A stretch of DNA of 64,000 nucleotides from Sphaerodactylus townsendi (taxonomy: Eukaryota): positions 30,690,001-30,754,000 of the forward strand of contig NC_059426.1 in assembly GCF_021028975.2 (NCBI RefSeq). The letters are read 5' to 3'. The translations under genes and the position numbers were made by a program. Below the pieces are notes generated by a model. The model had not been told where the DNA came from. It made no database searches and saw nothing but the letters and a program-made list of their open reading frames with translations. Positions 39,422 through 64,000 of this stretch are shown one piece after another; the stretch's first letter is position 1, and the number at the start of each line of letters is the position of its first letter.

Positions 39422-40264
39422 TAAGCAGAGGCATACTGGAAAAAAATGGCTCCTGGGGCAACCTTATTTTTGCACCCCCACTCCTTCTTATGGGCTTCGG
39501 ACATGTGTAGGCTCCTTGACCACAGTTTGATCATGTGCGGGGGTGATTTTGCCCCCCCCCCCCATGATTAAATGGGTGGCGCATGTGACCCTACATGTCC
39601 CTCTGGCAGGTAACATCCCTGAACCTAAGTCTGCTGGAATCAATGGGATTAGAATGGAGTCCCTCTACATGGGACTGCTCTCTAAATGATATAGGACCAG
39701 GATTTACGAGAGCCTACCTGACTTGAATCTAGCCCTTCTTAGCATAAATGCATGCAGAGCAATGGAAAACAGTTGTTCAGTGTCCCAAGAAGACACACAC
39801 TTTCTTGGTGGATGTACTGAGGCATCAATATGCCCTTCCCTGAGACCCATGTAATACCCACTTCAGTAGGCAAGGAAAGGGCATCTTCTTGCAAGAGGCT
39901 TTTTAACTTGAGCAAAAGGTAGGAAACTATGTCCCTATTGGCCAACCTCAGTTGTTTATGTGTTTCTGTTCATCTCTTTTCTTCCACTGATGGCTTTAAT
40001 GGGTTTTCCCATGATGGGGCACTTCTGTGTAGAATTACTCTAGTGTGAGCTCATTAAATTCGGCAATCTTCATCTGGAATAACTGCACACATTTCCATTG
40101 CGAGTGTGCAACTGACAAGCAGGCTATGTATTTTTAAACAACAGTCCAAGGTTTTCACTGGGAGGCCACAAGGACATTTCTTTAAGCCCTGTGTATTGCA
40201 ATTGACTTGCTAAGGGAAAAAACCCCCAAACAATTTGTCTGTGAATTGCTAACACTTTTAGAGA

Positions 40265-40520
40265 CTAGGAACAGGAGTAATAAGTTCAAGGTGAAGGGAA
40301 AGCAATTCCATGTAAACATCAGGAAAAACTTCCAGACAGTAAGGGCTGTTCCAACAGTGGAATGCACTACCTCGGAGTGTGGTGGAATCTCCTTCTGTGG
40401 AGGTTTTTTAAGAGAGGCTGGATGGCCATCTGACAGGAGTGTTTGATTGGGTGTTCCTGCATTGAAGGGTTGGACTTGTTGGCCCTTGGGGTCTCTTCCA
40501 ACTCTATGATTTTATGATAG
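40265..40520 (+). mobile_element. CR1 LINE 3' fragment
   Basis: End of ORF2 (aggaaaaacttc..acagtaaggg...tggaa) and 3' end cttccaactctatgattttatgat. Confidence 0.75.
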
Positions 40521-40634
40521 CAGTTAAGCACCAATTTAGAAAGTTTAAGACATATGTATACATATCAAAGCAGTCTGCTGCCAAAGCAGAAATACAGCAC
40601 CATTTTCAGTTATAGCAAGTAACCCATCTCTAAC

Positions 40635-40775
40635 CTCTTTTGCACCTCTGACAAAGTCTATCCATTTAATTTCACCATGGCCAAAGAAAACTTCATGGAG
40701 ATCTTCTCGGGATGTCTGATCTTCAAGGTCTCCAGAGAATTTCAGCAAGCATCCCTGCATTTCTTCCAGGGATTT
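40635..40775 (-). CDS. SSB: SSB coding exon 8 (RRM2)
   Basis: [47 protein letters not shown]. Confidence 0.95.
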
Positions 40776-40927
40776 CTTTTTTTGTAATTATTTAAAAAGC
40801 AAGAGAAGAAAAGAAGATAACTCTTGTTAGATGAGACAAGATGTTTATATCCTTGAAGATTACTGTGTTGAAATCCAGTTTTACACTCTTTTGGCAAACA
40901 GCGAGAGTATAGCTAGTTAAAGACTAT

Positions 40928-41067
40928 GGCCCCTTCCGCACATGCAGAATAATGCACTTTCAATCCTCTTTCACAATTGTTTGCAAGTGAATTCTGCTAT
41001 TCTGCACAGTAAAATCCAGCTGCAAAGTGGATTGAATGTGCATTATTCTGCATGTGCAGAAGGGGCC
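40928..41067. mobile_element. Short PIF/Harbinger-like MITE
   Basis: Same family; TSD TAT. Confidence 0.82.
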
Positions 41068-41825
41068 TATCTGAAACAAAGTACAAAGTTAATATAGGGA
41101 TCTGCCTGATGGATGAAGATTTTGAGACTCGTGTTCAAATTCCCTTCTCCCATGGCGCTCACTGGGTAAACTGGAGTCACACTGTTTCTAAACCTAACCT
41201 GCCTTACAGGGTTATTGTGAGATAAAAGGGAGAGGAGAAATGTAGACCAAAGGTCTTCTTGGATAACAGGATGAAATAAAAATGTTACAGCTGGACAATG
41301 TAATGACAGATGAGACCCTTTCATCAGTTCATTAGTTCCTGTTCACTAGATATAACAATACTGCAGTATTAACTGCTTAAATAGTATAAGATTAGACCAT
41401 GTACTTCTGACCAGTGTGGCTTAAAGGGGTTCAGTTTTTTATAAGTGCTCCACTAATGCCATAAGGCAGAGTGAATCTAACACAGAAACCAGTTGGCTTT
41501 GGAATTCCATAAGAGCACACGAATGTTTAGTTTAAACTTAAAATTTAGTATAGCCTTCCAAATCCAAGACTGACAATTTCTCCAGCTGCACAGGATATAA
41601 GTTGCTGATAGCATTCATCACCACACCACAGGATAATAGGACCACCCTGTGTAACAAGCAGACTGTCTTTTAAATCAAACACTTGGAGGGAGGGGGGCTC
41701 GAACCTGATCTGTCATACTTGCCTTAATATTTAATTACTGAGAATTCACTCTTGGTTCTGTTATTTGCTCTGTATGGTGATTTGCTAAAACAGCCTTTTA
41801 AGTAATATGAACTAACAGAACCAGA

Positions 41826-42113
41826 CAGCCAGAGGGATGTAGTGGTTAAGAGCAGGTAGACTCTAATCTGGAGAAACAGGTTTGATTCCCACCCCCCTAC
41901 ACATAAGCAGCAGAGTCTTATCTAGTGAACCAGATTTGTTTCCCCACACCTACACATTCCTGATGGGTGACCCTGGGCTAGTCACAGTTCTTTGGAACAC
42001 TTTCAACCCCACCTACCTCACAAGGTGTGTGTTGTGGGGAGAGGAAGGGAAAGGAGCTCGTAAGCCACCTTGAGAGAAAAGTGGGGTATAAATCTAAACC
42101 CTTCTTTCTCTTC
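41826..42113 (+). mobile_element. tRNA-derived SINE (related subfamily)
   Basis: Head gtagtggttaagagc...ggtttgattccc and shared body. Confidence 0.75.
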
Positions 42114-43068
42114 TAAAATCAGAACCACTTTTTACAAAACTCCTTCAAGTACTACATAATGTCCTAATAAACTTCAGATAAAAAGCTCTAATACATTAGA
42201 TATCAAATGATTAATTTATTTTAAATGGGGGGCGGCCACAGGCAGAGGTTTCAGCTTGCCTGGAAATGACAGTTTCATTGGGAAGCCCCCCCCCCCCATG
42301 CTGCAATTCCTGATTGCAAGGAAATGCTTCATCACAGAACTCTTATCGGATGAGGAGCACTTTGATCTATATATTCTAGGATTCAGCCATGACACAGATG
42401 TCTGTAGATAGCACCGGATCCCAACGACCTACTTAACTCTTTGAGCATATTTATTCCTGAATATCTTCAAATTACTAGCAGTGGCAATAGGTCCAAATTC
42501 CTTAGTTCAAGAGTTCTAGTGAAAATAGAACATGCCAGTCTGAGCAGCAAGTCCATAAGGATCAACTGGTGTTCACTTGGGTGCAGTCGACCTATCCCCC
42601 ATCAGCCCAAAATGCTCCAGGGGACCCCCAGAAACAGTATAGAGACAAAGCTGGAGGCCTGCAGTTAAGAGGGGGGAATTGTTGACAATCGCCTACCTCC
42701 ACTGACAGGATTTTTCTACAAGAGGCAAACAAAAATGTGCCCTTCCAAAGGAAAAAAAATTACACAGCTTGAACATGCAAATTTTTTGCATTTGTACATC
42801 TGAGCATTTCTTCTGCTCTATGCAGACTTTTAATTATAATGGAACAGAACTCTAAGCAACTCTAAAGCACGTGCGCACACACAAGAAAATGCCTGAGGTA
42901 CATTGCAGTAACATGTGCTACACATGTGAATTCCAATTGCACGCTAGTATGCCATTACAAGTGTTCCTTGTGTAAAAGCCCTGCTAAACGCCTAGGCAAA
43001 AACAAAAACAAACACCCACAGAAATACTGTGGTAACAGCTTCAGTTTATCAAGTCAAGGGCTAGGTAC

Positions 43069-43111
43069 CATTTCAGCAGCTTCAGCTTGCTTCTTTTGTT
43101 CTTCCTTATCC
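43069..43111 (-). CDS. SSB: SSB coding exon 7
   Basis: DKEEQKKQAEAAEM; taacAG acceptor, GTACCT donor; 43 nt keeps phase. Confidence 0.88.
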
Positions 43112-43211
43112 CTGTTACAAAGAGATTGCAAAAGTCAGTTAAGCAACCTTCCGGCAGATTCACAGCCAAACAGACAGAGATGTTCTTTCAGCATCCAAAG
43201 TGATGGCTTAC

Positions 43212-43283
43212 TGTTTGGCCTTTGCTTTTTTCTCCAGCCTGTTCCGTTTTCTCTCCTCTTGCTTCTTTGTAAAGTAATCATCC
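43212..43283 (-). CDS. SSB: SSB coding exon 6
   Basis: DDYFTKKQEERKRNRLEKKAKAK; gcAG acceptor, GTAAGC donor. Confidence 0.93.
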
Positions 43284-43557
43284 CTGCACAAAATATGTTC
43301 TGATTAGAAACCAGTTTGGAAGCTGTTATTATATATGCAGGAGAAGGGAAAGAGAAAGAACAATCTTAGACGTTTGTCTGTTTTCAAGTAGCTGAACCAC
43401 AAACCAAATCCTCAAATTTACTACTGCTAATCAATGCGACTAGCTGGTGTTGACAGCCAGTCCTTATTAAAAATGCCACCTGGATATCCTAATGCATAAC
43501 TGTGCTCTACTTCCCATGCACAGAACCTTAATTTCTCAGGCAGCAATTACGCTAAAG

Positions 43558-43693
43558 CAGGGGTGTCCAACTCTGGCGCTTCAGGTGTTCATTCCAATCA
43601 GCCCCTGCAGGCATGGCCAATTGATCATGCCAGCAGGGGCTGATGGGAATTGTAGTCCATGAACATCTGAAGTGCCAGAGTTAGACACCCCTG
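43558..43693. mobile_element. Palindromic hAT MITE (GACTACAATTCCCA family)
   Basis: TIR caggggtgtc; TSD cgctaaag/ctctaaag. Confidence 0.82.
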
Positions 43694-44210
43694 CTCTAAA
43701 GGATTGACTGAGAGACCAAGTTGAAGAAGACAGGAAGCAGAAAGAATATTAAATTTGTTTCCATGGGACTGAAAAGAGTCCAATGGCACCGTTCCTATAA
43801 TGGACACAGCAAGTCTATTACAGTTTGACAGCAGGTTTCCTTTGTCAGAGTTCAAGAAGCTTTCTTGGGTATGGGAGGAGATACAAAGATGACAGCAATG
43901 AAGTAGGCAGAACTTTTGAGCCACATTCACAATCTCCACTCTGTAATAAACCTAACTGAACAAATTTGGACCATCCTCTCTGCCTTTCAGCCTGGTTTTG
44001 GTTGTAAAGGAATAAATCTATACATTCTGGACTCAAGCAAGAACACCAGAGTTATCACATCGCCCAGAAATGTATAGCAAATTCAAAGAATTTAAACCTA
44101 GTAGAGTCCATCTAAACACCCCCATAGAGGTTGCCTTCTTCAGTCAGGAGTTTCAAGACAACGCAAGTCCATGCTAGAGCACTAAGCGCATTGTTTTAAG
44201 TTGTGCTTAC

Positions 44211-44311
44211 CTGAAGAGCACAATTAGTTCTGTGTCGTTGTACTTCTGACCTGGAATCTCCACAAACTGCTTTGCAGATTCAACAGTATCAAAGACTGCA
44301 AATATCGAACC
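44211..44311 (-). CDS. SSB: SSB coding exon 5 (RRM1)
   Basis: [33 protein letters not shown]. Confidence 0.96.
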
Positions 44312-44393
44312 CTGAATGAATCGAAGAGAATTAAATTAGAGCAGCGGGATATTCTCACTCAAAGCTGGCATAATTCTGTGTAAAATAAATTAC

Positions 44394-44501
44394 CTTAAAG
44401 GATTTCTGAAATGTTTTCCTCATCTGAATGCTTTCTACTTTGCCTTTATTTTCTAGCCATTCCTTGATATCATCAAGAGTTGCATCCAATGGAAAACCTT
44501 T
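44394..44501 (-). CDS. SSB: SSB coding exon 4 (RRM1)
   Basis: [36 protein letters not shown]. Confidence 0.96.
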
Positions 44502-44702
44502 CTGCAAAATGAGGTTTGGGAAAGTTACAGAGTTTTCAAACACACATGCACTCACCCCCCCCCCCAACACAATACATACCAAAAAGCTTTAAAGAAGGCT
44601 ACTGTCTAATTGAAGGTAATTTTATACCTAGTTTAGTCCTACCGCAGCCAACAATAGAACTGCCTTGTTAATGGAATACGTGTTTTTCTGTATGTCAAAA
44701 GA

Positions 44703-44985
44703 ATAATAATTTGGATTTATATCTCCCCTTTCTCTCCTGTAAGGAGGAAGGGGCTTACAATCTCCTTCCCCCCCCCCCCCACAGCAAACACCCTGTGAGG
44801 TGGGTGGGGCTGAGAGAGGTCCAAAGAACTGTGACTAGTCCAAGGTCACCAAGATGGCATGTGCTGGAATGCACAAGCTAATCTGGTTCACCAGATAAGC
44901 CTCCACAGCTCAAGTGGCAGAGCAGGGAATCAAACCTGGTTCTCCAGATTAGCGTGCACTGGCTCTTAACCAATACACCACGCTG
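44703..44985 (-). mobile_element. tRNA-derived SINE (Squam3-like)
   Basis: Same family. Confidence 0.8.
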
Positions 44986-45327
44986 GCCATGCTTCACGGG
45001 GACAGAATTTATCTGTTGCAATGTGACATGCTCAAAATCTCTGATCTCAAGTCTGTGGACACTAGAAGCACCAGGGCAAGAGGACAGGACAGTTCCATAT
45101 GTCTCCATGTGACCAACAGAAGGAGTGTAAAAATATGACAAGTTGGCAAAAAACAAGTAAATCATATTTTCAAGCTGCATAACAAAGTATAAAAGCTCAA
45201 TTTTAAAGACTTCTTGGACATTAAAGTATGCGATAAATGTGAACCTATTACCTTCACAATGTGTTTCTGGGGTTTTCTTGGGAATTTAACATACCTCTTT
45301 TCTGAATTACAGTCAGCATGGTGTAGT

Positions 45328-45522
45328 CAGTGGTTCCCAAACTTATTTGGCCTACCGCCCCCTTTCCAGAAAAAATATTACTTAGCGCCCCATGGAAATT
45401 AATTTTTTAAAATTTTTAATAGCAATTAAACAGAAAGATATATGCACCTGTGGCCATCACCGCCCCCCTGGATCGCTGCAGCACCCACCAGGGGGCAGTG
45501 GCGCCCACTTTGGGAATCACTG
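45328..45522 (+). mobile_element. hAT MITE inserted into the head of a SINE
   Basis: TIR cagtggttcccaaa / tttgggaatcactg; TSD ggtgtagt/gctgtagt. Confidence 0.87.
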
Positions 45523-45912
45523 GCTGTAGTGGTTAAGAGTGGTGGATTCTGATCAGTAGAATTGAGTTTTATTCCCCATTCCTCCACATGATTGGCGGAC
45601 TCTTATCTGGAGAACTAGATTTGTTTCACTGCTCCTACATATGAAGCCTGCTGGATGACCTTGAGCTAATCACAGTTCTCTCAGAACTCTCAGTCCCTCC
45701 TACCCCACAAGACGTCCATTGTGGGGAGAGAAAGGGAAGGAATTTGTAAGCCACCTTGAGACTCCTCACAGGAGAAAGGTTGGGGTATAAATCCAAAACC
45801 ATCTTCTTCTTCACTGGACCTCTCCTACAATGCACTGGGCAATATTCTGTGGGAATTCTGGTTATCCTCCAGTCCAAGAATACAGACCAATGAGTATGAC
45901 TTCACTCTAACT

Positions 45913-46119
45913 CAGTGATTCCCAAAGTGGGCGCCACCGCCCCCTGGTGGGTGCTGCAGCGATCCAGGGGGCCGGCGATGGCCACAAATAGAAACATTAA
46001 TACATATATCTTTCTGTTTAATTGCTATTAAAATTTTAAAAAATTAATTTCCAGGGGGCGCTTAAGTAATATTTTTTCTGGAAAGGGGGCGATAGGCCAA
46101 ATAAGTTTGGGAACCACTG
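45913..46119 (-). mobile_element. hAT MITE, same family as 45328-45522 in inverted orientation
   Basis: TIRs; TSD ctctaact/gtctaact. Confidence 0.87.
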
Positions 46120-46247
46120 GTCTAACTGATTGCATGACCTAAAACACTCCCTACAATCCTTTGCAAAGTACAGGGTTCCTCAGCACAAAAAAGATCCCTG
46201 AATATCACGCCTGAACCACAGTGAAGAAGAGTATCATTTGCACTTAC

Positions 46248-46422
46248 AATATACACAGATCTGCTGTTAACTGCACTTTTATATTTTTCAGTGATTTCCG
46301 GTACAGGCTTAGTTGGCGATCTTCGGATTTTAGTGTTGTCTTCACTCACTTCCATAAGACCTGCCTTTGATTTTCTTAATGCTCCCACTATTGCATCAAA
46401 GTCTTTTGTCAGGCGATTTAAC
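46248..46422 (-). CDS. SSB: SSB coding exon 3 (transcript exon 4; La motif C-terminal part)
   Basis: [58 protein letters not shown]. Confidence 0.96.
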
Positions 46423-46561
46423 CTGAGATTGCAAAACAAAGTAGTCAAGGTTTCATTTTTTGAAAAAAATTAACATTAAATCATTCTCCAAATACAATAT
46501 GAATAAACATTACAGACAACACACATTCCTGTTGGAGGAACAGCATAACATTTGTCTAGAT

Positions 46562-46888
46562 CAGCCATTCTCAACCAGGGTACCGTGGTACCCTGGGGTG
46601 CCGTGAGCATGTCCCAGGGGTACCGCGGCAACACTACTGCCCCACCCCCCTCATTTTTGTGGTGTCTCCCACCGGCGCCAGCAAGGACATGGAGCTGGCC
46701 CATGGGGCAGGGCCTGCCACAAGGTCAGCAGCCACCACCACCCCCAGTGCTACCCTTCACCCTGGGAGGTGGGGTGTGTGGCAAGCAGGACCATGGGAGG
46801 GGAAGGTGGAGAGTGGCGGCAGGGGTACCGTGAGATATGAAGAGTGAGGTCAAGGGTACCCTGACTTCGAAAAGGTTGGGAAACACTG
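46562..46888. mobile_element. hAT MITE
   Basis: cagccattctcaacc / ggttgggaaacactg termini; perfect TSD gtctagat. Confidence 0.85.
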
Positions 46889-47330
46889 GTCTAGATAAAT
46901 CAATTTCAAAAGAGTTTAAGCAATTAAGGAATAAATTAGATATGACTGAAATGGCGGAAAGAAACTGAGATTCATACAACAGACATTTTGAACAGGCAAC
47001 TAAATCTGGAAGACATTTGGCAATTTATCTAAGAACAAAAACTGAAAAAAGAACAATCACGGGGTGAAGGGAAATAATATCATACATGTAAAAAATACAG
47101 GAACTTGTTCTTTTTCTTGGATTTATTTAGAAAAAGTTGTTGAGCAGAAGACACAATGAAAGAGGGATAGAACCTGGGATCAGATGCACCAAATCAGAGG
47201 CTCTTCCACTCAGCCACAAGCCCTCCCCTAGAATCTAGCACAGGTTCATGTAAAAGACCATCAATCCATGCCACTGCCACACTGGCAAAGGTAGATAGAA
47301 CTACAGGGGATTTTTATGGCCTCATGCACT

Positions 47331-47630
47331 GGCAGCAGTGGGGTAGTGGTTAAGAGCAGGTGCATTCTAATCCGGAGGAACCGGGTTTGATTCCCTGCTC
47401 TGCCGCTTCAGCTGTGCAGGCTTATCTGGGGAATTCAGATTAGCCTGTACACTCCCACACACGCCAGCTGGGTGACCTTGGGCGAGTCACAGCTTTTCAG
47501 AGCTCTCTCAGCCCCACCCACCTCACAGGGTGTTTGTTGTGAGGGGGGGAAGGGAAAGGAGATTGTAAGCCCCGTTCAGTCTCCTACAGGAGAGAAAGGG
47601 GGGATATAAATCCAAACTCCTCCTCTTCCT
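47331..47630 (+). mobile_element. tRNA-derived SINE (Squam3-like)
   Basis: Same family. Confidence 0.82.
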
Positions 47631-47873
47631 CATTTTTTATGATCCAATTGGTTCCCAAGGACACTGTCTACCAACTGAGCTAATAATTTTTTCTGGCCTT
47701 AGTTGTCAGAATAGGAGTCCTTTTAAGGAAATGCCTGATAAGACAGTACACCCTGGAGAAGCCTATTCTGCTTTGATCAGCCGTCCACGTGCTCGGGCAC
47801 TGGGCAGCCCAGAATGGGATGAGCTGGCTGTTTAAACGGCCTGGCTTTGAGGATTTCCCTTTTGCATATCATA

Positions 47874-48013
47874 GGCCTCGTCCACACATGCAGAATAATG
47901 CACTTTCAATCCACATTCACAATTGTTTGCAAGTGGATTTTGCTATTCTGCACAGAAAAATCCAGCTGCAGAGTGCTCTAAAAGTGTATTATTCTGCATC
48001 TGCGGAAGGGGCC
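47874..48013. mobile_element. Short PIF/Harbinger-like MITE
   Basis: Same family. Confidence 0.75.
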
Positions 48014-48616
48014 GTTACCTTACGTATCTAGAAAAGCACTAGTCAATGAACGGTTACAATATGCTGCATCAAGTAAAGCTGCCCAGGATCAAACCTGGGA
48101 GTTTCTGCATACAAAGCAAGCATTCCCCCACTGAGCCACATTCCCTCTCCTTCCGAACTGCTAATGTAGTTGAGGAAGAAGTGCTTGTTAAGCGTAGCAA
48201 TTAGCTTCTTAAACCATCTGGTAAAATGCTCAGCTTGAACAGACGAAGGGACTTCTTGCCAGACTCTTTCCTTCCTCTCCTGACCATTCACTCTCCTCCT
48301 TCTCAGAGGTTGCAGGCGCAGCAATGACAGATGCCCTGCATCCCCTGCATCGAGGGCAGCCTTGCTGAGACATTGGGAGGAAGGGCTCTTAGCGGAAACA
48401 AAACTCCTGCATGGAGAAACGTTCGTCCTCCTTCGAATCTGTCCATAAGGGGCTGAATTGTTTTGGTGCGTTTTGTAGTGGATGATGGAAAAACCGCAGG
48501 CTCATTCTCTGAGCCTGTGACATCTTGTGCCCATTGAAGGGAGGGTGGTTCTTTCCTGTGTGATTGGGACTTGGGTGAGAGTCCAGGCTGTCAGGGATTC
48601 ATATTGGGGAAAAAAA

Positions 48617-48663
48617 CACACACACACACACGCACGCACACACGCACACACACACACACACAC
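48617..48663. repeat. (CA)n microsatellite, imperfect
   Basis: Directly visible. Confidence 0.9.
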
Positions 48664-48852
48664 CGGTCTGCGATCTATATTCAGTCTTGCAACATTTGGG
48701 ATGGAGCTGCCCCTGAGGGAAGAGACCACTCCCCATGACCATGACAGCCATCCATACTCCACACTTGGGCAGGACTCCCCAGAAATGAAGTCCTTAGTAA
48801 TACTTTTCAAATATCTGCCACAATGCCATGGTCACCCATGTGTAAAATTTAC

Positions 48853-48956
48853 CTGTTAAATTTGATTATTATTTCTAGAGGCACCCAGCCTTCATCTAGC
48901 TTTATCTTCTCTTGCAGAAATTTGTCTCGTGGTAAGTTGTAATCACCAAAATAGTA
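48853..48956 (-). CDS. SSB: SSB coding exon 2 (La motif)
   Basis: [34 protein letters not shown]. Confidence 0.97.
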
Positions 48957-49134
48957 CTGCAAAATCAGTCAAAACAGTACACATGTTAACATTGAGCAAA
49001 GAGACTGCTGCCTCAGTTATCAAATAGTTTGTTCTTTGTCAAGCAGCTAAAAAAATATTCTTGCATTTTTATCTGTACTTGTTTGCACAAAAGAATATCC
49101 AGCATTAAGAATTCTGCATGGTGAGTATCTCTTA

Positions 49135-49275
49135 GGCTCAATCCGCACATGCAGAATAATGCACTTTCAAACTGCTTTCAGTGCTCTTTGAAGCTGTGCA
49201 AAATGGCAAAATCCACTTGCAAACAGTTGTGAAAGTGGTTTGAAAACGCATTATTTTGTGTGTGTGAAAGGGGCC
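49135..49275. mobile_element. Short PIF/Harbinger-like MITE
   Basis: Same family; TSD TTA. Confidence 0.8.
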
Positions 49276-49717
49276 TTAATTATAATGAAAACTGAGACTT
49301 GGCAGGTATGTAGGTAAAATGTATGGATTCCAACTCCAAGAGTTGAAAGTCCAGCAGAAAAAAATCTAGTAGATAAAATGACAGTTCTCTTCCCACTGAA
49401 TAGGTTTCAATTCTATTGCTACAAGAAATGTTAATGTGTACCCCAAGTACATGTTGTATTTAACTACTCAAAAGGGACCTGTATCAACTGTGTAAAGTAG
49501 GTAACATCTGAACCCTTCATTGAACAGATCCTTCTCAATCTCCTCCTTCCTGCTGGTTTTTGGGGGACGGGATTTGCCGAGGAAATGTGGAGCAATACAG
49601 CCCCCGCCCCCCGTGCTCAGAAATGCCTCCCCCCACTCCCAGGAGAAGCAATTGGATCCTACCCTAGGTATTCTATAATGGTGAAACATTAAACACTTGT
49701 GAATGAAGAAGCTATAC

Positions 49718-49783
49718 CTCAATTTGCTGGCAGACCTTGTTTTCCAAATCAGACATATTTTCGTGGTCCTCGTTTTCAGCCAT
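49718..49783 (-). CDS. SSB: SSB first coding exon
   Basis: MAENEDHENMSDLENKVCQQIE; an acceptor tatAG 9 nt upstream of the ATG implies an upstream non-coding exon. Confidence 0.95.
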
Positions 49784-50429
49784 TTCCCCCACCTATAATC
49801 AGAACAGTATTTGCCATTATTGACGATTTAAATTGTTCAACTATACTCTGTTCTCTTTGCTAAAACAAGTCCAAGAGCCGATCATGATTCAGACCTTGAA
49901 CGGTTAATATCAACAATTAATGTAACACTGAAGAAAAAAAAAACAACGTTCGTGAAGAGTTTAAAGAACGTTTAAAGAAGAGTTTAAAGAAGAGCTCTTC
50001 GAATTTTAGTGTTGTCTTCCATAAGACCTGCTAATTTGACTTTCAGTATTACTAAATTGAGATCAATGTGAACCAGAAGAACTTTGGATAGGAATTAGAC
50101 ATAGTATCAAGGAAAAATACACATTTCTGTACCCAAGAGCCTTGCTGGATGACTGAAGAAAGTCTTAAAATCGCTACACAAAAGAATCAAAAGTCTGAAG
50201 TTGAACATTTCCCCCCAAATCTGCACTGTTCTCTTTCACTCATTCATTTCTACCCAGTCGGAAAAAAAGGGCAGGCTATGATATCTGGCCTTAACACGTT
50301 TTCCCTATGCTCCACCCCGGATATGCTAGATGCATGCCCCTGTAACACGTGGGAGCAAATAGGGAGAGGTTAAGCTTCCTCTGTGGTGGAAAGACCATGC
50401 CCACCTCCTTGACTTAACTCCACCAGCTA

Positions 50430-51210
50430 GTAGTATTTTGCCGACCTGCTCGGCCCCTAGAAGGCCCCTTGCAGGCCAACCCCGGCGTTTTTTTCAAAAG
50501 CAACCGTCCTGCGGATGCAGGCCGCTGTCTGCGCCATTCCGCCTCCCGGGCCCAACCCCGAGCAGTGCCAACCCCGACCAGCATCCGTGCAACCCTGCTG
50601 GATGCAAGCCTGCTCGTCTGGAGCACAAGTCCCACCGCCTCCATTTCCTCGGGAACCTACACGTGGGGCAGGCAACCTGCAAAGAGGAGGAAGGGTTGCC
50701 AGAGGCGCGTTCCCACGACCGCCCTCCCGCGTGTTGGAAAGCCCTCATGCGCTAACGCGCCCACCCACCTTACACTCGTCCTGGAGAAAAAGTCCCCGGC
50801 GGGCTGGTGCGGTTCTTGAAAGGCCGATACGGAGCAGCCCAGCAGCCTGTGCGGTGAATGCCGCGCCCCTTTGCCGCCTGCCCGATGAGAGGCTGGCCTT
50901 TGCATGTCTCCGCCTCCAGGTCCTTCTCCGCCTTGGTTTCGTTTCCCTTCCTGCTCTGCAAATCTTTTCAACGGCGGGAAAGGGAGTTCTTGTATGCACT
51001 CATTTGCACAGCTGCCTTCTGAAGTGCTGGAAGAAGCAGGAGCCACAGGTTTTGGGTAAGCTAATGCTCGATAATATGGGTTGTTGTTTGTGCTTTCTAA
51101 AAACCTGTAGCATCGGTTAATCCAGTGCACTTGTAAGGACGCGTCCAGAAAAGAACGAATGTTTGCAGTATTTGGAGTCAGTTCCTGAACACGTGAAACG
51201 TGCACGTGAA
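50430..51210. promoter_or_regulatory. CpG island: SSB promoter and non-coding exon 1; possibly bidirectional
   Basis: CpG-rich; candidate minus-strand donor TAAG|GTGGGT at 50768; plus-strand donor-like GG|GTAAGC at 51056; several CACGTG E-boxes. Confidence 0.75.
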
Positions 51211-52236
51211 AATGCATCTCACTGATGGTCTGGCAGCCTTAGGTTGGAGCACGCACAGGAAAGGTGAAATTGGTTACAGGCTTCTGCCCCAGCCCTTATT
51301 TCACCTTAACCTCTATCTACTGGAACCGATGGGGGGAGGGAGGGGGCTGGGAATTTATTTGAAATGTAGCCTCACTTTCAGCCACCCTGGCTACTCCCTT
51401 CTGTCCAGTGACAACTTTCAGACTAAGAGCTAGTGTGGTGTAGTGGTTAGAGTGTCCAGCTAGGTCTGAGTCTCCATTCTTCTGGGTGACCTTGGGTCAG
51501 TCATGGAATCATGGGAGAGACCACAAGGACCATCAAGTCCAACCCCCTGCCTCTTTTTAAAAACCGCCCGAGAAGGAGACTCCACCTAAAAGTATCTGCC
51601 TGGTGACATGGGGTACCCCATGTCCCTAGGGCGCATGCCATCTGGTCACATGGGGGGCACATGACCAGGAAGACAGCTCTGCTTCCTGCCTCCATGTGAC
51701 CAGGAAGACAGCAAGGCAGCAGAACTTCCTGCTGCCTCATCGCCTTCTGACGCCCTTGGCCCCACCCATGTCATTATTGCCTCTCCACCCGACGGAGCTT
51801 CTGGCGCACTCACCGGGGGGGGGGGGGCAGCCAGGAATCTGGAGCCAGCCCAGCAGGGAAGCCCTTGCCTTGCCGCCCAATGGCTTCCCAGTTGGCACTG
51901 CCCCTGCAAGCATGCCCGATGGAGCCTCTGGTGTGTTTGCAGGGGCAGTGCCAGCTGGGAAGCCGAGCTGGCTCAGCTGGAGGCCAAGCTGAGCCGGGCC
52001 AGCTGAAGGAGAGCGGGGTAAGGCCTGGAGGAGGGAGAATGGTGTGAAGGACAGGCAGAAGCCACGGGATAAAAGGAAGGGGAGAAACAGTCACGAAGCT
52101 GCAATGAGGATACCCGGGCTAGCATTTAAAATACAATCAAGGAAGAGAGGGAAGCGGGCAAGGGGTATCCAGGGAAAAGGTCCCCTTTGCCAGACTAGCT
52201 CAAGCACTTAGTGTTTGCCACCCACTCCCCGCCCTG

Positions 52237-52466
52237 CTGCCTGAGCTGTGGAGGCTTATCTGGGGAATTCAGATTAGCCTGTACACTCCAACACACACCA
52301 GCTGGGTGAACTTGGGCTAGTCACAGTTCTTCTGAGTTCTCTCAGCCCCACCTACCTCACAGGGTGTTAGTTGTGAGGGCGGAAGGGAAAGAAGTTTGTA
52401 AGCCCTTTTGAGTCTCCTTGCAGGAGACAAAGTGTGGATATAAATCCAACTCTTTTTCTTATTCTT
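52237..52466 (+). mobile_element. 5'-truncated SINE whose pyrimidine tail precedes the transposase locus
   Basis: Same family; tail tctttttcttattcttccccAG. Confidence 0.8.
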
Positions 52467-53112
52467 CCCCAGAGACTGGAGGTGAGGCCAGGGAAGTCAA
52501 GTTTCAAAATGAAGCGTGATGTGCAAAAATCAGTTTTAAATCTTTTTAACAAAAAGCCCAAATGTGAAGTTGACCATGACAGCAGCAACACAAGCACGAC
52601 TGTTTCCAGTCCAGAAAGTTTGGCTTCTCCTTCAACTTCTGTCTGTTCGCAATCGATGCCACAGGATTTTCAACCGCCAGCAAGTAAGTTTATATAGTAC
52701 CTATACCTTTAGCTTGATTTTTATTCTGAAAACTTTAGACCTAAGATTGATGTATAGAAAGCAGTGCGCACTTAGCACTACTGTATCCTCTAGATTTCAT
52801 TTTCAAAGAGCTGGCTTGCAAATAGCATAAATAACCTTCATTTTTTTTCCCCAGTTCACCCGGAAGCTTCTATACTCTATGACTGTGATGTTGGCAGATA
52901 TTTAAAACACAAAATAGAAAACAGTGTGCCAAGCACAATGCAATAGAACCGAACAACTCAAAAATTCAAAATTGGCACACTGACCTGGATTTGTATGTAG
53001 ACATCATTTACAAAAAATTCAAAGCAACATTTACTCAAAGTTATTTTTCATTGTTATTGCACACATGTAAATCCACTTACACTAATGTTAACCTTATTCT
53101 AATATACTATAA

Positions 53113-53347
53113 TAAGAAAATTAAAGTGCATAATATATATATAAAGTGCCAGTGTCAATAAATCATATCAAAATACAATTTCATCATTTCATACAAATTA
53201 TAATGACAAGATCCATATGTGACTCATTAGTTTAGAGTCACATATGGACCTTGTCATTATAATTTGTATGAAATGATGAAATTGTATTTTGATATGATTT
53301 ATTGACACTGGCAGTTTATATATATATTATGCACTTTAATTTTCTTA
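53113..53347. repeat. Long inverted repeat: 113-bp arms, 9-nt loop, 2 mismatches
   Basis: 53113-53225 is the reverse complement of 53235-53347 (checked base by base). Confidence 0.95.
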
Positions 53348-53348
53348 G

Positions 53349-55143
53349 GTATTTAAAACAACCACCTCAAAATGACGAAGAGAAGTTTAAAGCTCTCAGC
53401 GAACCTTGGATCCCTCCATGTACGTACCAATTTCCTATAAGTACAGATGGACACTTGTCATTTCAACGCCATTGGATGGCGCAATACAATTGGCTAGTTT
53501 ACACAGATTATTTACAAGGTGCACTTTGCAAAGTTTGTGTCCTGTTTGGTGGAAGTGGCTTTGGTGGTCCTGGTCAACAACAACTTGGGGCTCTTGTCAA
53601 GAAACCGTTCACAGATTGGAAGCACGCAACAGAAACATTTGAAAAACACGAAAAAGCTGAATACCATCAATTTGCTGTTGAAAAAGCTGAAGGGTTTTTT
53701 TCTGTGATGTCAGGAAAAAACCAAAATGTAATTGAAGCAATCAGCACAGAAGATCAAAATATTGCTCCAGAAAATCGTAAAAAACTCACTGCCTTAGTAG
53801 AAACAGTTATTCTGTGCGGTCATCAAGAAATTGCCTTGAGAGGTGACTGCGAAGGTGGACCTCTGGGACTCACCGAGCCTCTTCACAATGATGGCAATTT
53901 CAGAGCTCTTCTTCAGTATCGAGCCCGCTTTGGAGATGAAGCCCTTAAAAGCCATTTGCAAACTCAGACTTCAGATAGTAGGTTCATGTACACATCTCCT
54001 TCTATTGAAAACGAAATTGTTGAATTATGTGGTAACTCAGTGCAAGAAAGTGTAATCAGGAGAATAAAAAATAAAGGACCAGGTTATTTCTCAGTTTTGG
54101 CGGATGAAACCCAAGACAGCTCAAGACAGCAACAGTTGTCTTTGTGTGTACATTATTTAGACAGCTCTTGCAAAAAATCCATTGTTCGTGAGGACTTCAT
54201 TGAGTTCATTCTTGTAGAAGACTTGTCAGCGTCGGCATTAGCAACCACCATAATGGAACGCTTGACTTCTCATGGCTTGGATCTTGAGATGATGGTTGGT
54301 CAGGGCTACGATGGTGCTGCAGTAATGAGTGGCCACCTTAAAGGTGTGCGTGCTCTGATAAGCGAGCAGTACCCTAAGGCGCACTTCATACATTGTGCTG
54401 CACATGGTCTCAATTTCGTTCTTGCCCATTCGTCAGAAGTAGCTATGATAAGGAACTGTATAGGAATGGTTAAAAATATTATTAATTTTTTTAGACAATC
54501 TTCCTTAGGGAACACTGTGCTGAAGAGAACTGTCGGAGAAAATGTGCATTCTCAATTGGTATCTCTTTGTGAGACGGGACCGACTGAGAAACACAAGGCT
54601 GTAAGCAGATTCGTAGAAATATTTAATGCCATTGTAGAAGCACTGTATACTCTGGGAAATGATGGTAGAGACTCGCAAGCCTTTCAGTTTATACACAGCC
54701 TAGAGAACTGTCAATTTGTTATTTCTTTACTGATTTTGAACAAGGTGTTTAGTTACACATCAAGTTTTAATGTGGCCCTGCAGACGGTTAGCATAAATCT
54801 CAATGAAGTATACACACACGCTAAAACAATCATAGAAGCCCTGGAGGCTATCAGGAGTGATGCTAGCGATGCTGTGTTTTACAGTATTATCGAGAAAGCG
54901 AAGAACTTACTTGGCACTACAGAAATTAAGGCTCCTCTTCTGGTTTCAAAACAAACTTGTGAAAGCAATGTTCCAGCCAGTACCCCAGAACAGTACTACA
55001 AAATAAATATTTTTTATCCATTTCTGGATCATGTTATAGAGGAATTGAAAGCTAGATTTGCCTCTCATGCAAACATTGTAGGAAATTTGCAAATTTTAGT
55101 TCCAGGTTTCTTTATAGATGACGGAGCCTGTCACTTACAATGA
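53349..55143 (+). CDS. Main open segment of the hAT transposase-like ORF
   Basis: About 600 uninterrupted codons with TTF zinc finger, DUF4371, two catalytic Asp and CxxH; preceded by an acceptor-like tttcttAG. Confidence 0.65.
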
Positions 55144-57124
55144 ATACAACATTTGTACTTGAACGATGTAACATCCGAAACCTTGAAAGCAGAGTATGAT
55201 TTGTGGAAAAGGAAGTGGGCAACAACTGGATCTGCTATGGGTGTTTTGGAGGCTTATGACCAATGCAATGAGCTTCTTTTCCCTAATATTAAGACATTAC
55301 TTGGAATTTTTGCGGTGATCCCAGTAACAACTGCAACGCCTGAACGGACTTTCTCATCATTAAAACGACTGAGGACATACCTAAGGAACAGAACCGGCCA
55401 GCAAAGACTGATGGGCCTAGCTCTGATGGCAGTTCATAGGGACATCATCATTTCTTCAATGGAAATAGTTGATAAACTCGCTTCTCGGGTGATTTTATAG
55501 TTTTTTAAAATAAATGTATTTTTACATTTTCCTTTCGATTTTCTTTTCAAACCACATCCTATCACTACATAGCTGTGCATTATGTATGTTAGAAAAGCAT
55601 TTCAATTTTATTTTACCTATACCAGGGTGAGGGGGATACCTGAACAGGTATCTTGAAACTGATGTACCTTGATCTTATACTACTGGTTGCTGACTGTAAA
55701 TAAACGACTTTGGTCTTTGATACATGAACAAACCAGTTGCTCAATCACTGAACCCACCCCATAACAAATCTACACCTATGTCCCTGCTGGAAGATGCAAG
55801 TGAAAACTAAACTGGGTTGGCTTTAATTTGTGCAGGGATAAGAAACTGTCCTATGTAAGCTGCTTGGGTTCTGTGAGTAAAGACAGGCAAGGGTCTGGAG
55901 CTTCTAATTTTTAAAATGATAAATCATAGGGATTAAATGACTAGCAGGATTTTTATTCGGCCCCTTTTGTCTCTTGCCTAGTAGCATAGCTCAGTTGTTT
56001 CTTTACATCCTCAAACAAACCGCTATTGACTGCTTCTAAATATCTGTAGCAATTCATTGATTTTCATAATGGCCTTTGGCAAGACCTTCCCTTTGAGTCA
56101 TTCTGAATAATCCACTTTCAGAACTCTTTCAATACATTTTGTTGATTGTTTACAAGTGGATTTTGCCATTTTACACGGTAAAATCCAACTTAAAAGTGCA
56201 TTGAAAGTGCATTAATTAGCGAAGTTAAGCTGCGTTGGCCTTATTTAGAACTCGAATGGGAGATCATCGTGGAAATTCAGGGCTGCTACGAAGAGGCAGG
56301 CATTGATGAACCACCTCTATTTGATTCTTGCCTTGAAAATCCAATGATACCAGATTTCTGATACCAGATAGGAGGCACATTCTATGGTGACAGCATCAGT
56401 TCTGAAAGTCTTTCTTTAAGATTTTTGGAAGCTTTAGAATGTTTGGCAGTACATTGTATCACCATTTTTATTTCGTAAGGTTCGGGAAAATGTTGTAACT
56501 TGAAACATTTGAAATGATAAGTTTTTAACATTTTCATTCGCATGAAATTATGGCAATTTAAAATATAAATTAATGAGAAATTGCATTTTTCTACTGCCCA
56601 GCCCTAGTTATAAGCAAATAAATTGCTTTTTTGCTATAAACTGTTAAATAAATGATTTTTTTTTTTAAAAAAAAGCTATATTGTGAATATCCATTGTGAA
56701 AACTGGTCACATTGGCCTGCAAGTACAATGAATTATGATGAATCTTACAAATGGAACAGCCAGGGCATCAAGGTTGGACTGTGCTTATGGTATCAGTCCC
56801 ACTTAATCTGCCCCTGATCCCAGTAGGGTTAGAACAATTCTGAAACTAGATGCTGGAGTGCATTCGTGGGCTGTGAGAGAACAGCTAATTACCAGAAGAA
56901 ACAAATTCATTAAAAAGTTCTTAAGAGCCCCAAACCCCCACCCATTGAGAAGAGTGGCTAATGTAGCTCAACAGAAGTCACGAATATTGAGGCCTCCTTC
57001 GTTCCAGTTGGGCAGCTGCCCAGAAAAGTGACTCACAAACATGGGGGAGGAGGTGAGCTCCTCTACTGGTGGATGATTCTTTCACATTCTAAAAAGTGAG
57101 TGTCATGATATAAGTAATGTGTGA

Positions 57125-57652
57125 TGTAGGGGTGAGCCCGCGAACCCAGCAGAACCGTAGAAGGAGCGCCAGGCATGGCAGTGGTGTCTTACGGCTCACG
57201 ACCTTCTGGGTGCACCACGCTCTCCCCAACCCCTCGCTCCCCCATGAGTCACCCCGGGTCGCCCATGAACTGCCTGGACTTCCAAGCGGTCACCTGCAGG
57301 TGTCCCCATACAAAAGGGACAAAAGGGCAATTCCTGCCCCTCGCAGGTGAAGATTAGACTCCAGAACCACAGGATGCTTCCCTCCCATGCACGTAGCAGC
57401 CCGATGAGATCATGCATCACATGATGATCTTCCGCTCTCCCGCTCTCCCGATCTCCCGACCTCCCGTTCTCCCGCCTGCCCGACCCCTTTGCAGCCCGTT
57501 GGAGAACCCTGGCTAATAAAGGTTAGTGAGGGGTGGTTTTGCGGCAGAGTTGCCAGGATCACGGGATCCCGCGCTTCCTGCCTCTGGCTCTCTCCACCAG
57601 ATGAAATCTCCGCGTCTCGTCTCTTCATTGGGGCCTCGTGGGTACGACTACA
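57125..57652 (+). mobile_element. Candidate solo LTR
   Basis: TGTAG...CTACA ends, CpG-rich, AATAAA near 57515; no TSD found. Confidence 0.4.
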
Positions 57653-57806
57653 AGCGTACCTCAGCAGAAGAAAATCTACTTCAGCTTTTAGAAGTTTAGG
57701 AAACGCTGCCTTACAGACATTTTTTAATGTCGTTAGGGTTGCAAACCTATGAACCTGAGACTGAGATCACCCCATAGAAGTCAGGGGCACTTTTCTTCCT
57801 ATATAT

Positions 57807-58223
57807 CAGGGGTAGGGAACCTGCGGCTCAAGAGCCGCATGCGGCTCTTCTATCCTTGCACTGCGGCTCCACGAGCCCAGCTGCCGGCTTCATCCTTGCC
57901 TGCCCTCAGGCAGCAGGGCGGGCGCACCAACTGCCCGCGGATGGCTGGGCTGCTCCGCGAGCTTCCCCTCTCACCCACCCCATTGGGACGGGGCGGGCGC
58001 TTTCCCGGCGGACGGCGAGGCTGAGCCGCCGGCTTCATCCTTGCCCGCCCTGCAGGCAGCATGTGCTTCTCAGAATGAGTGGAGTAAAAGGTTAAAAAAA
58101 CCAATATATACAGTGTTATCTTTATTTTAAATGTCAAAAATTATTTGCGGCTCCAAGTGTTTCCTTTTCCCGTGGAAAACGGGTCCAAATGGCTCTTTGA
58201 GTATTAAAGGTTCCCTACCCCTG
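57807..58223. mobile_element. hAT (Charlie-type) MITE
   Basis: Perfect TIR caggggtagggaacct; TSD ctatatat. Confidence 0.9.
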
Positions 58224-59161
58224 CTATATATGCATAGCATTGGGTATAATCTGTTTATTTTGTCATTATGTGCAACAATAAGATTTAAAGCATTTAATAA
58301 GCACTCTTTTTCAGCTAGGGCTTAACAATGCCTTGTCAGTCAGATATGATCGATTTTTTTATTGCAGAAACAGTGGTATGCTGGGGGGGCGGAGTCTAGG
58401 AACCTTTAGTGTAACAATATTATTTGTTTCATCCTAAACCATATTTACTTGAAGACAATTTCCATTATTTCCTGTGGGCAAGACATCATTGTTTAAGTCA
58501 AATTATACTGGAAGAGAAATTTCATGCGGCAGATTTCTTCTTTAAGAGTCAGAAAATACTCTACATTTGCTGGTGGAAAAATCAGAAGTGATGCAAACAT
58601 TGCTCATTGTGTGGCACATTTATTATAAATTAAAGTTAAATAACAACAAATCATCCCAACCACAGCAATATAAAAATGTGAAAACTGTACATAACATTCC
58701 CAAGTTTAGAGGTAAGACATTTTTAAAATGTAGTTTTAAGACGGAACTCAAAGGGAGTCATGATTGTAACAGTGGCATGCCAATTGTAAAGGTTTACATA
58801 AATGTTCTATTTCACTGATCAGTAATATTGATATCTCTTCCTAGGAATCCTCATGCTGATGCAGCATGTTTGGCAATAGGAAACAATCTAGATATCACTG
58901 TTCTGTTCATCCTCTATACCCAGAGGAATTTTGCTACAATGTCAGCATTTGTTGAATTCATAGTAATTGGTGTTTAGTTACCTCCTATGAGGTATTTATT
59001 GTTATTATACATTTAAATTTTTAAAATGCATTTACCCTGCCCTTCAACTGTTAAATCTTTCCAAGCGTTTTGCAGATCCTTTTAATCTCAGTGTTTTACT
59101 TCCATATCCTGTACTGCATTTACAGTGAAATCCCATACAAAACTATTAAAATCAGTCAGCT

Positions 59162-61067: not shown

Positions 61068-61378
61068 TTACACGTTGTACACACATACGCAACCATGTGA
61101 ACGCATTGCACTGGGAAGGCTGCCCACAATTTCCCATTTATCACATTCAGGATCATATTTCTCAATATTTTGCAAATACGATCCTTTAGAAGATGAGTAT
61201 CCTCCTGTTATGTAGATGAAGCCATTCATGACTACGGATCCACATTCCATCCTTCTTTCTATCATATCAGCCTTCTGTTTCCATTTCTTTTGTTCTGGAT
61301 CATAACAATCTGTGATTGTGGTTTGTCCACCCACAAGATAGAGCTTGTTTTCCAGGGCAATGGAACACAATCCATATT
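61068..61378 (-). CDS. KLHL23: KLHL23 terminal coding exon (kelch repeats)
   Basis: EYGLCSIALENKLYLVGGQTTITDCYDPEQ...MERRMECG...GGYSSSKGSYLQNIEKYDP...LPSAMRSHGCVCVYNV*; ccctgcAG acceptor; syntenic with SSB. Confidence 0.95.
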
Positions 61379-62070
61379 CTGCAGGGAGAAAAGAAAAAAT
61401 ATTGGAATATTGCCTAATCATCTGAAGGTTCAAAATACAGCAGAAGGCTAGGAATCATGTTTCAAAGCTACTGAAATGTGTGTCTGCATTGATTTGGGGA
61501 TGGGAATCGTACACGAGGGTTGCAAGGAAGATCCAGATTTCCGCTATACGAAAGAATGAGAAATCACTAAATATTATTAAGTGATACATGTAAGAAGGGA
61601 ATCCTGAACTATTTCACTGAACATACAGCTAAGCATTGCGGCCATCTTAGTTATTGCAATGTAGTGTTTACCATCAATAGAATTATTTTTATTCATTAAA
61701 ATGCTTGTATCCATTGTGGATAAAAATCAATGCTTTTTAAAAAAAATTAAAAGTAGGATTTTACCATTTTAAATCAGATTGAATCAGATTTTAAATCAGA
61801 TTTTTAAAATAAAAGACTTTGAGGAAAAAAGTCTGCCTAAAATAGTTTAAATAGTTTTCTATTTATTTTTTATTTAATACCCCGCCCTTCCCAGCCTAAG
61901 CCAGACTCTGGACAGCTCACAGTGCAGTTTCCCAGACATCAATTATAAAAGCAAATTACAAAAATGACATTTGATTTCCTCCTAGGCAAATTTACAAGTA
62001 TTGCTATCCCCCACCCCCGCCAAAAACGGCATGAGGGTGGCATTTTTCAGAGGGAAAACAATCAGCATAG

Positions 62071-62241
62071 TCAAAGACTTTCACGGCCAGATTCAACTGG
62101 TTGTTGTGGGTTTTCCGGGCTGAGTGGCCATGGTCTGGTAGATCTTGTTCCTAACGTTTCGCCTGCATCTGTGGCTGACATCTTCAAAGGTGTATCACAG
62201 AGAGAAGTGTGTTCGGCTGTGAAAGCCTTCGACAATACATT
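62071..62241 (-). mobile_element. Penelope-like fragment, same family
   Basis: High similarity to 22559-23030. Confidence 0.7.
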
Positions 62242-63380
62242 AATAGCTCTCCACATTAGAGCCAGCATAGTATGATGTTTTAAGGTGTGGGACTAAGACC
62301 TGGGAAACCCAGGTTCAAATCCCCACTCTGCCATGGAAACCTACTGGGTGACCTTGGGCCAGCCATATACTCTCTGCCTTGACCCTGGCAGCAATTTGGA
62401 TAAATCTCCAAGGATTACCTGAAGCATGATGTGGAGGCAGGCAATGGCAAACCAACTCTGAATGTCTCTTGCCTTGACAATCCCACCAGGGCCCCCCATA
62501 AGACAGCTGTGGCTTGACAGCAAAAAATAAATATCCTCCACATTAGTCTCAACATTGAAACCACATATTCAGCTTTATTAAGATTCAGAATTATTGCTGT
62601 CCATGTTCCTCAAGCAGTACTGCTTAAGGCAGTAGCTGCCAACGAGATCACGACACACCTGTTTACCAGGTTCACCACCTCACAGTACATCAGCCATTTT
62701 CTGCCAGATGGCGCCACAGACCACAGCCTGTTAACTTGCTTGGAATATTAAGAGAATCCTCCTTGAAGCCTTACTTTATAATTGATGTCTAAGGTTCACT
62801 AGCAAACCAAACCAGACCAGTATTACTAGCAGCAGACCATGGGCTTTTGAATGAAACCCTGTGGGCACAAATTATATTAAGCAAGGGTGGTGGTGGTTTC
62901 TTTTGGAAATAGGCCAATGGCATTTCCTGTCTTGGTTCCCAACTGCAATTCTGCATGCTTTTCAGATATCAGAGAGTGATATATTAGTGGGAGAATCAGG
63001 AGCTAAGGTGTTGTCCCTCTGGATTACCACGAGGGTAATAACAATCAGGATGAGAGGTTTCGTTGTCTTCAGCAGTCCTTCCTTCTCTCTCTGTAGGTGT
63101 TCTAAAGTGGAGACTTAGCTATCTCTCCTCCTTGGGCACAGCAGGCAACTGTGAACATGTTTACTACACTCATGCTTGTGCCCAAACAATCAGCTCTTGG
63201 GATAATTTGTAGAAAGTTTAGATGGGAGTAAATCCAGTGGATATAGAACACTTCTCAATAAAGTCCCGCCCCCCACTTTGCCTGGATGCTGACTCTATTC
63301 GTTTCCTTTTAAGCATGTTGTTGTGAGTCTACCATGCTTTATTGCTGTGCCAATTATTTCTGCTATATAAGGGCTGAGAG

Positions 63381-63481
63381 CAGTGGTGGGATTCAAATAA
63401 TTTAACAACTGGTTGTTTACAAGCACCATTTTAACAACCAGTTCTCCCAAAGTGGTGCGAACCTGCTGAATCCCACCGCTG
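63381..63481. mobile_element. hAT MITE, CAGTGGTGGGATTC family
   Basis: TIRs; perfect 8-bp TSD gctgagag. Confidence 0.88.
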
Positions 63482-63774
63482 GCTGAGAGCCAATGTGGTT
63501 TAGTGGTTATGAGCAGCAGACTCTAACCTGGAGAACTGAGTCCAATTCCCCACTCTTCCACATGAAGCCTCCTGGGTGACCTTGGGCCAGTCACAGTTCT
63601 CTCAGCCCACATGGAGGCAGGTAATGGCAAACTACCTCAAAATATCTCTTTCCTTGAAAACTCTAAGAGGTTGCCATAAGTCAACTGTGACTTGTTGGCA
63701 CTTTCCACCATAGAGGGTATAGCAGGTTACGTAAATTCCACATTTTCCTCATGCCAATCAGGAGTAAAATTTAC

Positions 63775-63927
63775 CTGGATTTGGGGCAGTGGTTACTATG
63801 CTCCATTCATTAATGTCCGAACAATACCTCTGGACTTTGTCATAAGTGCAGCTTCCCCGGTAACCATAGTGACCTCCGATTACATAGATTACTTCATTCA
63901 GGACACAAGCAGTGGCATTTCCAACCC
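63775..63927 (-). CDS. KLHL23: KLHL23 penultimate coding exon
   Basis: Manual translation VGNATACVLNEVIYVIGGHYGYRGSCTYDKVQRYCSDINEWSIVTTAPNP; aacAG acceptor, GTAAAT donor, phase fits next exon. Confidence 0.94.
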
Positions 63928-64000
63928 CTGTTTGAATTTGTAAAAGGCCTTTAAATCATGTTTGATGCTATTCAGTATTATTTTCATAAATAAATGCTAG

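Follow-up and report, generated by a model that had tools for sequence, protein, structure and literature searches.

A probable hAT transposase pseudogene beside the SSB promoter region of Sphaerodactylus townsendi, whose reading frame may for a time have been held open by selection

To describe a transposase-like open reading frame in Sphaerodactylus townsendi, we analysed a stretch of 64,000 nucleotides (NC_059426.1, positions 30,690,001 to 30,754,000; hereafter the window), in which a copy of a hAT transposable element lies on the plus strand at 51786..55786, between the SSB (La) gene and a Kelch-repeat gene. The initial annotation of this DNA had proposed a domesticated gene head-to-head with SSB. 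The locus is of transposon origin and has dispersed copies in the same genome; about 180 bp of its 5′ end, including the terminal inverted repeat (TIR), are gone and its 3′ end is kept. Its transposase frame carries two disabling lesions, and its coding part has a deficit of small insertions and deletions (indels). The transposase gene is very probably a pseudogene in this genome. At a probability of about 0.5, we read the locus as a low-copy hAT copy whose frame stayed open under weak selection at the host level, was still open when the lineages of two organisms, A and B, had separated, and was broken later.

Much of the proposed gene structure was confirmed. The transposase starts at an element-borne ATG at 52509 (exon 1, 52509..52683, delimited from the sequence and its paralogues), followed by a 171-bp GT-AG intron at 52684..52854 that keeps the correct phase and, by sequence comparison, is common to paralogues. 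The main open frame at 53350..55140 contains a zinc-finger region, the DUF4371 domain and the motifs DETQD, GYDGA and HCAAH, as recovered by profile search and alignment, and an element-borne AATAAA is present at 55509..55514. The remainder at 55144..55500, now untranslated, encodes the PF05699 dimerisation domain (E 7e-13) and the glutamate of the ERTFS motif (55342), so the DNA still encodes all four motifs and the domain by which a hAT transposase is recognised. The conserved Arg-Trp pair (RW, at the position of Hermes R318/W319; 54577..54582) reads GP here and GR in organism B.

The 3′ TIR lies at 55768..55786 on the plus strand, where homology with two paralogues (C10 and C8:2.65M) stops. 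A matching 5′ TIR is kept in the C8:103.18M and C6 copies and is absent from the window copy, and a search of window positions 40000-53000 with a word size of 7 found no hidden upstream 5′ TIR. The 8-mer CTGGAAGA that follows the 3′ TIR recurs at 51027 (chance about 5%; no copy was found with both ends); this second occurrence has no TIR beside it and is more probably a chance match than a target-site duplication. Within the 5′ untranslated region of the element, a 5′-truncated short interspersed element (SINE; 52226..52464, plus strand) ends in a pyrimidine tail that precedes the element's own CCCCAG. The SINE is common to the window copy and the C8:103.18M copy, its tail is also found in the C13 copy, and the C6 copy is without it. 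The splice acceptor proposed for the gene (AG at 52471-52472) had been attributed to the SINE; the tail is indeed there, but the AG itself belongs to the element, being present in the SINE-less C6 copy as well. Since the ATG, the intron, the SINE tail and the AATAAA are found in dispersed copies, they are, as far as the sequence comparison goes, features of the element that were not acquired at the SSB locus. The only host-derived splice feature of the proposed model is a candidate donor in host DNA (GG|GTAAGC, 51056..51061, plus strand), found at the predicted place from the letters alone; GGTAAG occurs in the window at 0.22 per kb per strand, which makes this donor weak evidence.

Joining the proposed exons gives 2370 nt, or 790 codons, as had been predicted; the frame is not open, however, for codon 671 is TGA (55141-55143). 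At this codon organism B and three of the paralogues have CTA, and one other paralogue has GTA. This stop cuts off the PF05699 dimerisation domain and the catalytic ERTFS glutamate. An assembly error at this site was considered and rejected, as two organism A samples (X1 and X3) have contigs over this site that agree with the window, with no other letter at the codon-671 stop in either.

The second lesion is a young 3′ fragment of a Penelope-like element (GIY-YIG family; 52908..53349, minus strand), which sits within exon 2 after codon 73. The segment 52898-53348 had initially been removed as an intron, a step that does not stand: it begins with AT and is therefore not an intron, and it is a repeat insertion flanked by the target-site duplication TATTTAAAA, with genomic copies up to 99% identical. 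Translation that ran into the insertion would terminate in frame at codon 89. The end of the insertion supplies TTTTCTTAG|G, a good acceptor that is out of frame, so that skipping exon 2 to this new AG does not restore the frame, and the insertion contains two AATAAA-like signals. Splicing across the insertion as a rescue was also rejected, because no strong in-frame donor is present; the sites that might serve as one upstream of the stop in the insertion are of the weak GC type. Given the two lesions, a present-day intact 790-aa gene, as initially annotated, is not supported. Public databases (NCBI, UniRef and nr) carry a 555-aa protein model of the locus, which begins at Met 53476 and is closed by the TGA of codon 671.

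Searching the same genome at the DNA and protein levels yielded at least five paralogues with coding sequence at 85-91% identity (C8:103.18M, C10:21.06M, C8:2.65M, C13:32.32M and C6:71.74M), plus end fragments. The locus is thus one of at least six dispersed copies of a low-copy hAT family and is not single-copy. These counts are lower bounds, as the best 40 of 386 coding candidates and the best 40 of 424 3′-subterminal candidates were scored; among them, the closest coding copy reaches at most about 91% and the closest 3′-subterminal match at most 92%. The sister copy, C8:103.18M (G000:C8:103184558-103190300), has kept its 5′ TIR and lost its 3′ TIR. Its start is some 1.4 kb away from a CpG island with an NCBP2AS2-like frame on the opposite strand, again head-to-head. 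This sister, which the initial annotation did not single out, bears stronger signs of constraint than the window copy (dN/dS, the ratio of nonsynonymous to synonymous rates, 0.35-0.47; 0/99 private changes at conserved columns; indels mostly in frame), and it too has been disrupted, in this case by a TGA, a 4-nt deletion and the insertion of a SINE and of a short hAT-type sequence.

Five sequencing runs were compared. They behave as DNA, with even depth over introns and spacers in four and no GT-AG joint among the 15 joints listed out of 249. In organism B (two runs of one study), contigs about 97% identical to the window cover the coding part at single-copy depth, with one 3-nt indel and no frameshift listed, so that a relative has an orthologous copy at this position. 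One B contig (51712-52255) crosses the 5′ truncation, and a second (55759-56203) enters the element by just 28 nt. The truncation, and with it the loss of mobility that follows from the missing 5′ TIR, is therefore common to the window copy and organism B, and the copy would have been immobile before the A/B split. Loose ends of B contigs at 53350 read as an uninterrupted exon 2. Together with the CTA at codon 671 in B, this uninterrupted exon indicates that both lesions are probably specific to lineage A, and the reading frame may be whole in a related species.

Several comparisons point to constraint on the frame. Not one small frameshift was found in 2370 nt of the window copy, whereas four decayed copies, 5573 nt in all, contain 20, from which 8.5 would be expected in the window copy (P = 0.0002). 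When homopolymer-adjacent events were dropped by hand, 11 events remained and 4.7 were expected (P = 0.009). The two small indels of the coding part are both multiples of three, while the copy's own non-coding parts contain about 3-5 in some 750 nt (P 0.09-0.01); a regionally low indel rate as the cause of the open frame is weakened by these non-coding indels. Between A and B, 54 of about 2150 coding positions differ (2.5%), against 71 of 1782 in non-coding contigs (4.0%; P = 0.01), with a likeness threshold of 93% for the non-coding contigs and possible paralogues among the coding rows. On the stem before the A/B split we counted 45 nonsynonymous and 30 synonymous changes (45N:30S; dN/dS about 0.6, P about 0.03-0.05), and on tip A 18N:6S (dN/dS about 1), all branch values being obtained from site-majority counts and a least-squares fit of pairwise distances. 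In a patched version of the B sequence, 0/64 conserved zinc-finger and dimerisation columns are changed, compared with 11/185 in decayed copies, a post hoc test with P = 0.07 that is based on 40 of the 54 A-B differences. Premature stops, considered by themselves, show no significant deficit (1 against an expected 3.0, P = 0.20), and CpG retention is uninformative as an age marker (0.53 here, 0.37-0.69 in paralogues). Within vertebrate genomes, the evolution of DNA transposons is reported to be neutral (PMC7070016), so that constraint on branches of this kind needs either a history of transfer or host selection.

Other results weigh against host selection. The dN/dS of the window branch is 0.54 (confidence interval, CI, 0.34-0.82) uncorrected and 0.73 (CI 0.46-1.09) at kappa 3, with a measured kappa of about 4; its dN (0.043-0.046) is the same as in dead copies, and between its N:S ratio and theirs there is no significant difference (P = 0.083). 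The A-B comparison gives 28N:12S (dN/dS 0.65-0.91, P 0.25-0.73, from the same 40 differences), and the B tip 10N:6S, which is not significant either. Among columns kept in at least 90% of 39 homologues, with 13 family-level columns set aside, 5/107 are changed here and 12/240 in dead copies (P = 1), and the RW pair, at the Hermes W319 position, is lost both here and in organism B. Low values are also seen in the clearly dead C8:2.65M copy (dN/dS 0.45-0.59). Frameshift counts are overdispersed among copies, and the window copy was noticed for its long frame, which together make the P-values optimistic. The uninterrupted exon-2 ends of organism B could stem from paralogues. Finally, Tol2, a hAT, is reported to prefer transcription start sites and CpG islands (PMC10954464), so both promoter positions, at SSB and at the NCBP2AS2-like frame, could reflect insertion bias. 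The initial annotation held that an intact orthologous frame with dN/dS well below 1 would speak for domestication; an orthologue does exist in organism B, and the A-B ratio is not well below 1. The possibility that the locus was once a retained gene is supported by the frameshift deficit, the sense codon 671 of B and the immobility before the A/B split; the same ratio speaks against it.

Given these opposing results, it is quite possible, though in our view somewhat short of an even chance, that the locus is an ordinary dead transposon never selected by the host, its open frame resulting from a late-active or re-transferred sublineage, chance and ascertainment, and its promoter position from hAT insertion bias. 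The dispersed copies with TIR-defined ends, the branch dN equal to that of dead copies, the conserved columns changed at a neutral rate, an A-B dN/dS not below 1 and the two tolerated lesions would all follow, and the branch common to the window copy and C8:103.18M has an active-element-like dN/dS of about 0.1-0.15 (wide interval). A late-active lineage, however, would be expected to keep RW483-484; among the copies scored, none exceeds about 91% in the coding part or 92% in the 3′-subterminal part, and the indel deficit is restricted to the coding part. It is improbable that a functional truncated protein of 555 aa is made from Met 53476, by way of splicing to the 53348 acceptor combined with re-initiation or leaky scanning: the public model and the good acceptor at the insertion's end would fit such a product, but it would be without the dimerisation domain and the catalytic glutamate, tip A evolves neutrally, and upstream ATGs and the two AATAAA-like signals of the insertion come first. 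We give scarcely any credence to a domesticated gene that is intact here and spliced to encode 790 aa, as the TGA at codon 671 is unvaried in X1 and X3 and the second junction has no GT donor, even though exon 1, intron 1 and the frame lie where such a gene needs them.

Under weak host-level selection followed by breakage, the history could have run as follows. A hAT element would have inserted at a distance of some 0.7 kb from the CpG island of SSB, whose divergent activity would have transcribed it, with splicing from the host donor at 51056 into the element's SINE-strengthened acceptor at 52472. Since the product would lack the hairpin Arg-Trp and retain the zinc-finger and dimerisation regions, it would most likely have bound DNA as a dimer and damped the activity of its own family instead of acting as a transposase; transposase-derived repressors exist and offer an analogy. 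Constraint would have lapsed in lineage A once the hAT family died out. If the copy was indeed host-selected, the species pair would present a short-lived domestication in which one allele is alive and the other dead, and why such a gene is kept and when it is dropped would become testable; if it was never selected, it would be a decayed transposon that mimics a gene and has a public 555-aa model.

Domesticated vertebrate hAT genes include THAP12, ZMYM1 and the ZBED and Buster genes; human is not known to have one between SSB and KLHL23. The window locus resembles them in its transposase-derived frame, its lost TIR and its position at a host promoter, and differs from them in being multi-copy, broken and known from DNA alone, with a dN/dS of 0.5-0.9. 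The nearest named relatives are arthropod hAT transposases labelled "ZMYM1-like" or "52 kDa repressor (THAP12)-like" (46-56% identity), including those of Acanthoscelides, Diabrotica, aphids and Schistocerca, which have the same DUF4371 and PF05699 domains and motifs. Unlike these, the window copy resides in a vertebrate, carries two lesions and has lost the RW motif and the 5′ TIR. In a quick tree of 25 chosen rows, the window protein fell within the arthropod clade (Shimodaira-Hasegawa-like approximate likelihood ratio test, 99), and this nesting makes horizontal transfer of the hAT family likely. The nearest sequences of all are unnamed Logan contigs (73-74%), and the sole named reptile among the 120 matches listed is Anolis (40%). 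No annotated close vertebrate orthologue appeared among the database matches listed, and a cursory search found no literature on this hAT locus.

Comparison with the Hermes transposase (PDB 4d1q, 2bw3, 6dww and 8edg) showed that the CxxH, TRW and ERTFS regions align in P0002, a close homologue of the window protein; relative to Hermes, R318/W319 is replaced by GP in the window copy, which also has a stop ahead of the glutamate. Efficient hairpin formation by Hermes requires W319, whereas Kat1 can do without the corresponding Trp (PMC4763223). The W-to-R change at the RW pair is common to organism B and the C8:103.18M sister. A bolder and rather unlikely extension is that the hAT family arrived by horizontal transfer and underwent two parallel domestications, both sister copies, each caught head-to-head with a housekeeping gene at its CpG-island promoter (SSB and the NCBP2AS2-like gene) and without the hairpin Trp, having been kept as expressed repressors and then lost here, with the SSB-linked gene still whole and expressed in a relative. 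If true, domestication and loss would have been caught within about 4% neutral divergence.

The host surroundings agree with the initial annotation, in that minus-strand La/SSB and Kelch exons flank a frame of hAT origin that points away from the SSB CpG island. The SSB/La gene is represented on the minus strand by its first coding exon (49718..49783, lower end approximate; ATG at 49783 from the translation), by an exon with a La domain (48852..48962; PF05383 above cut-off) and by RNA recognition motif exons found in a domain scan of the window. Its CpG-island promoter region spans 50300..51050 (GC content 0.63 and CpG observed/expected 0.77 at 50500-51000), and a donor scan placed a candidate minus-strand exon-1 donor at 50773. 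The proposed first exon (window 50885-51055) has three further ATGs, at 50885, 50904 and 50994; among the first-exon ATGs, one in the transposase frame terminates after 45 codons. Two Kelch-repeat exons from the domain scan (61071-61454 and 63761-63955, minus strand) belong to a gene at 61071..63955 that we take, by synteny, to be KLHL23. A second GC-rich island lies at 17001-18000 (GC content 0.68).

An older high-copy repeat (51592..51780; copies 71-89% identical, 2293 first-look candidates) adjoins the truncated 5′ end of the hAT copy, and a short high-copy repeat fragment (55647..55718; matches 89-97% identical) is inserted in its 3′ subterminal region. High-copy repeats also fill 57121-58223, where a contig of organism B joins 57120 to 58224 with fewer letters between, and part of this stretch is lineage-specific. 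As to the insertion in exon 2, longer copies of its family end in a GIY-YIG frame (PF01541, E 7e-7), which identifies it as Penelope-like. It resembles Penelope-like retroelements in this family frame, its inverted end and its target-site duplication, and differs in that only a non-coding 3′ part is present here. Its end folds back in arms of 113 bp (53113-53225 and 53235-53347). An older copy (85%) with the same fold-back is found at G000:C4:2098625-2099068, and the shared structure suggests recurrent template switching at one hairpin.

Related TIR-like ends starting with CAGTGACGTAGG lie near two paralogues (L043:2495 and L046:5574) and probably represent a sister family of short hAT elements. 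A second hAT-derived family is present in the genome and was examined at eight loci (L029, L031, L032, L035, L037, L038, L039 and L040, on C1, C3, C4 and C9 of G000), with a cluster at C3:12.9-13.1M. These loci were selected for their open frames, and in all eight the frame runs for 682-1042 codons without a stop, although pairwise dS is 0.10-0.38, with dN/dS of 0.37-0.88; the four that were scanned contain DUF4371 and PF05699. This second family is a stronger candidate for a domesticated hAT gene family.

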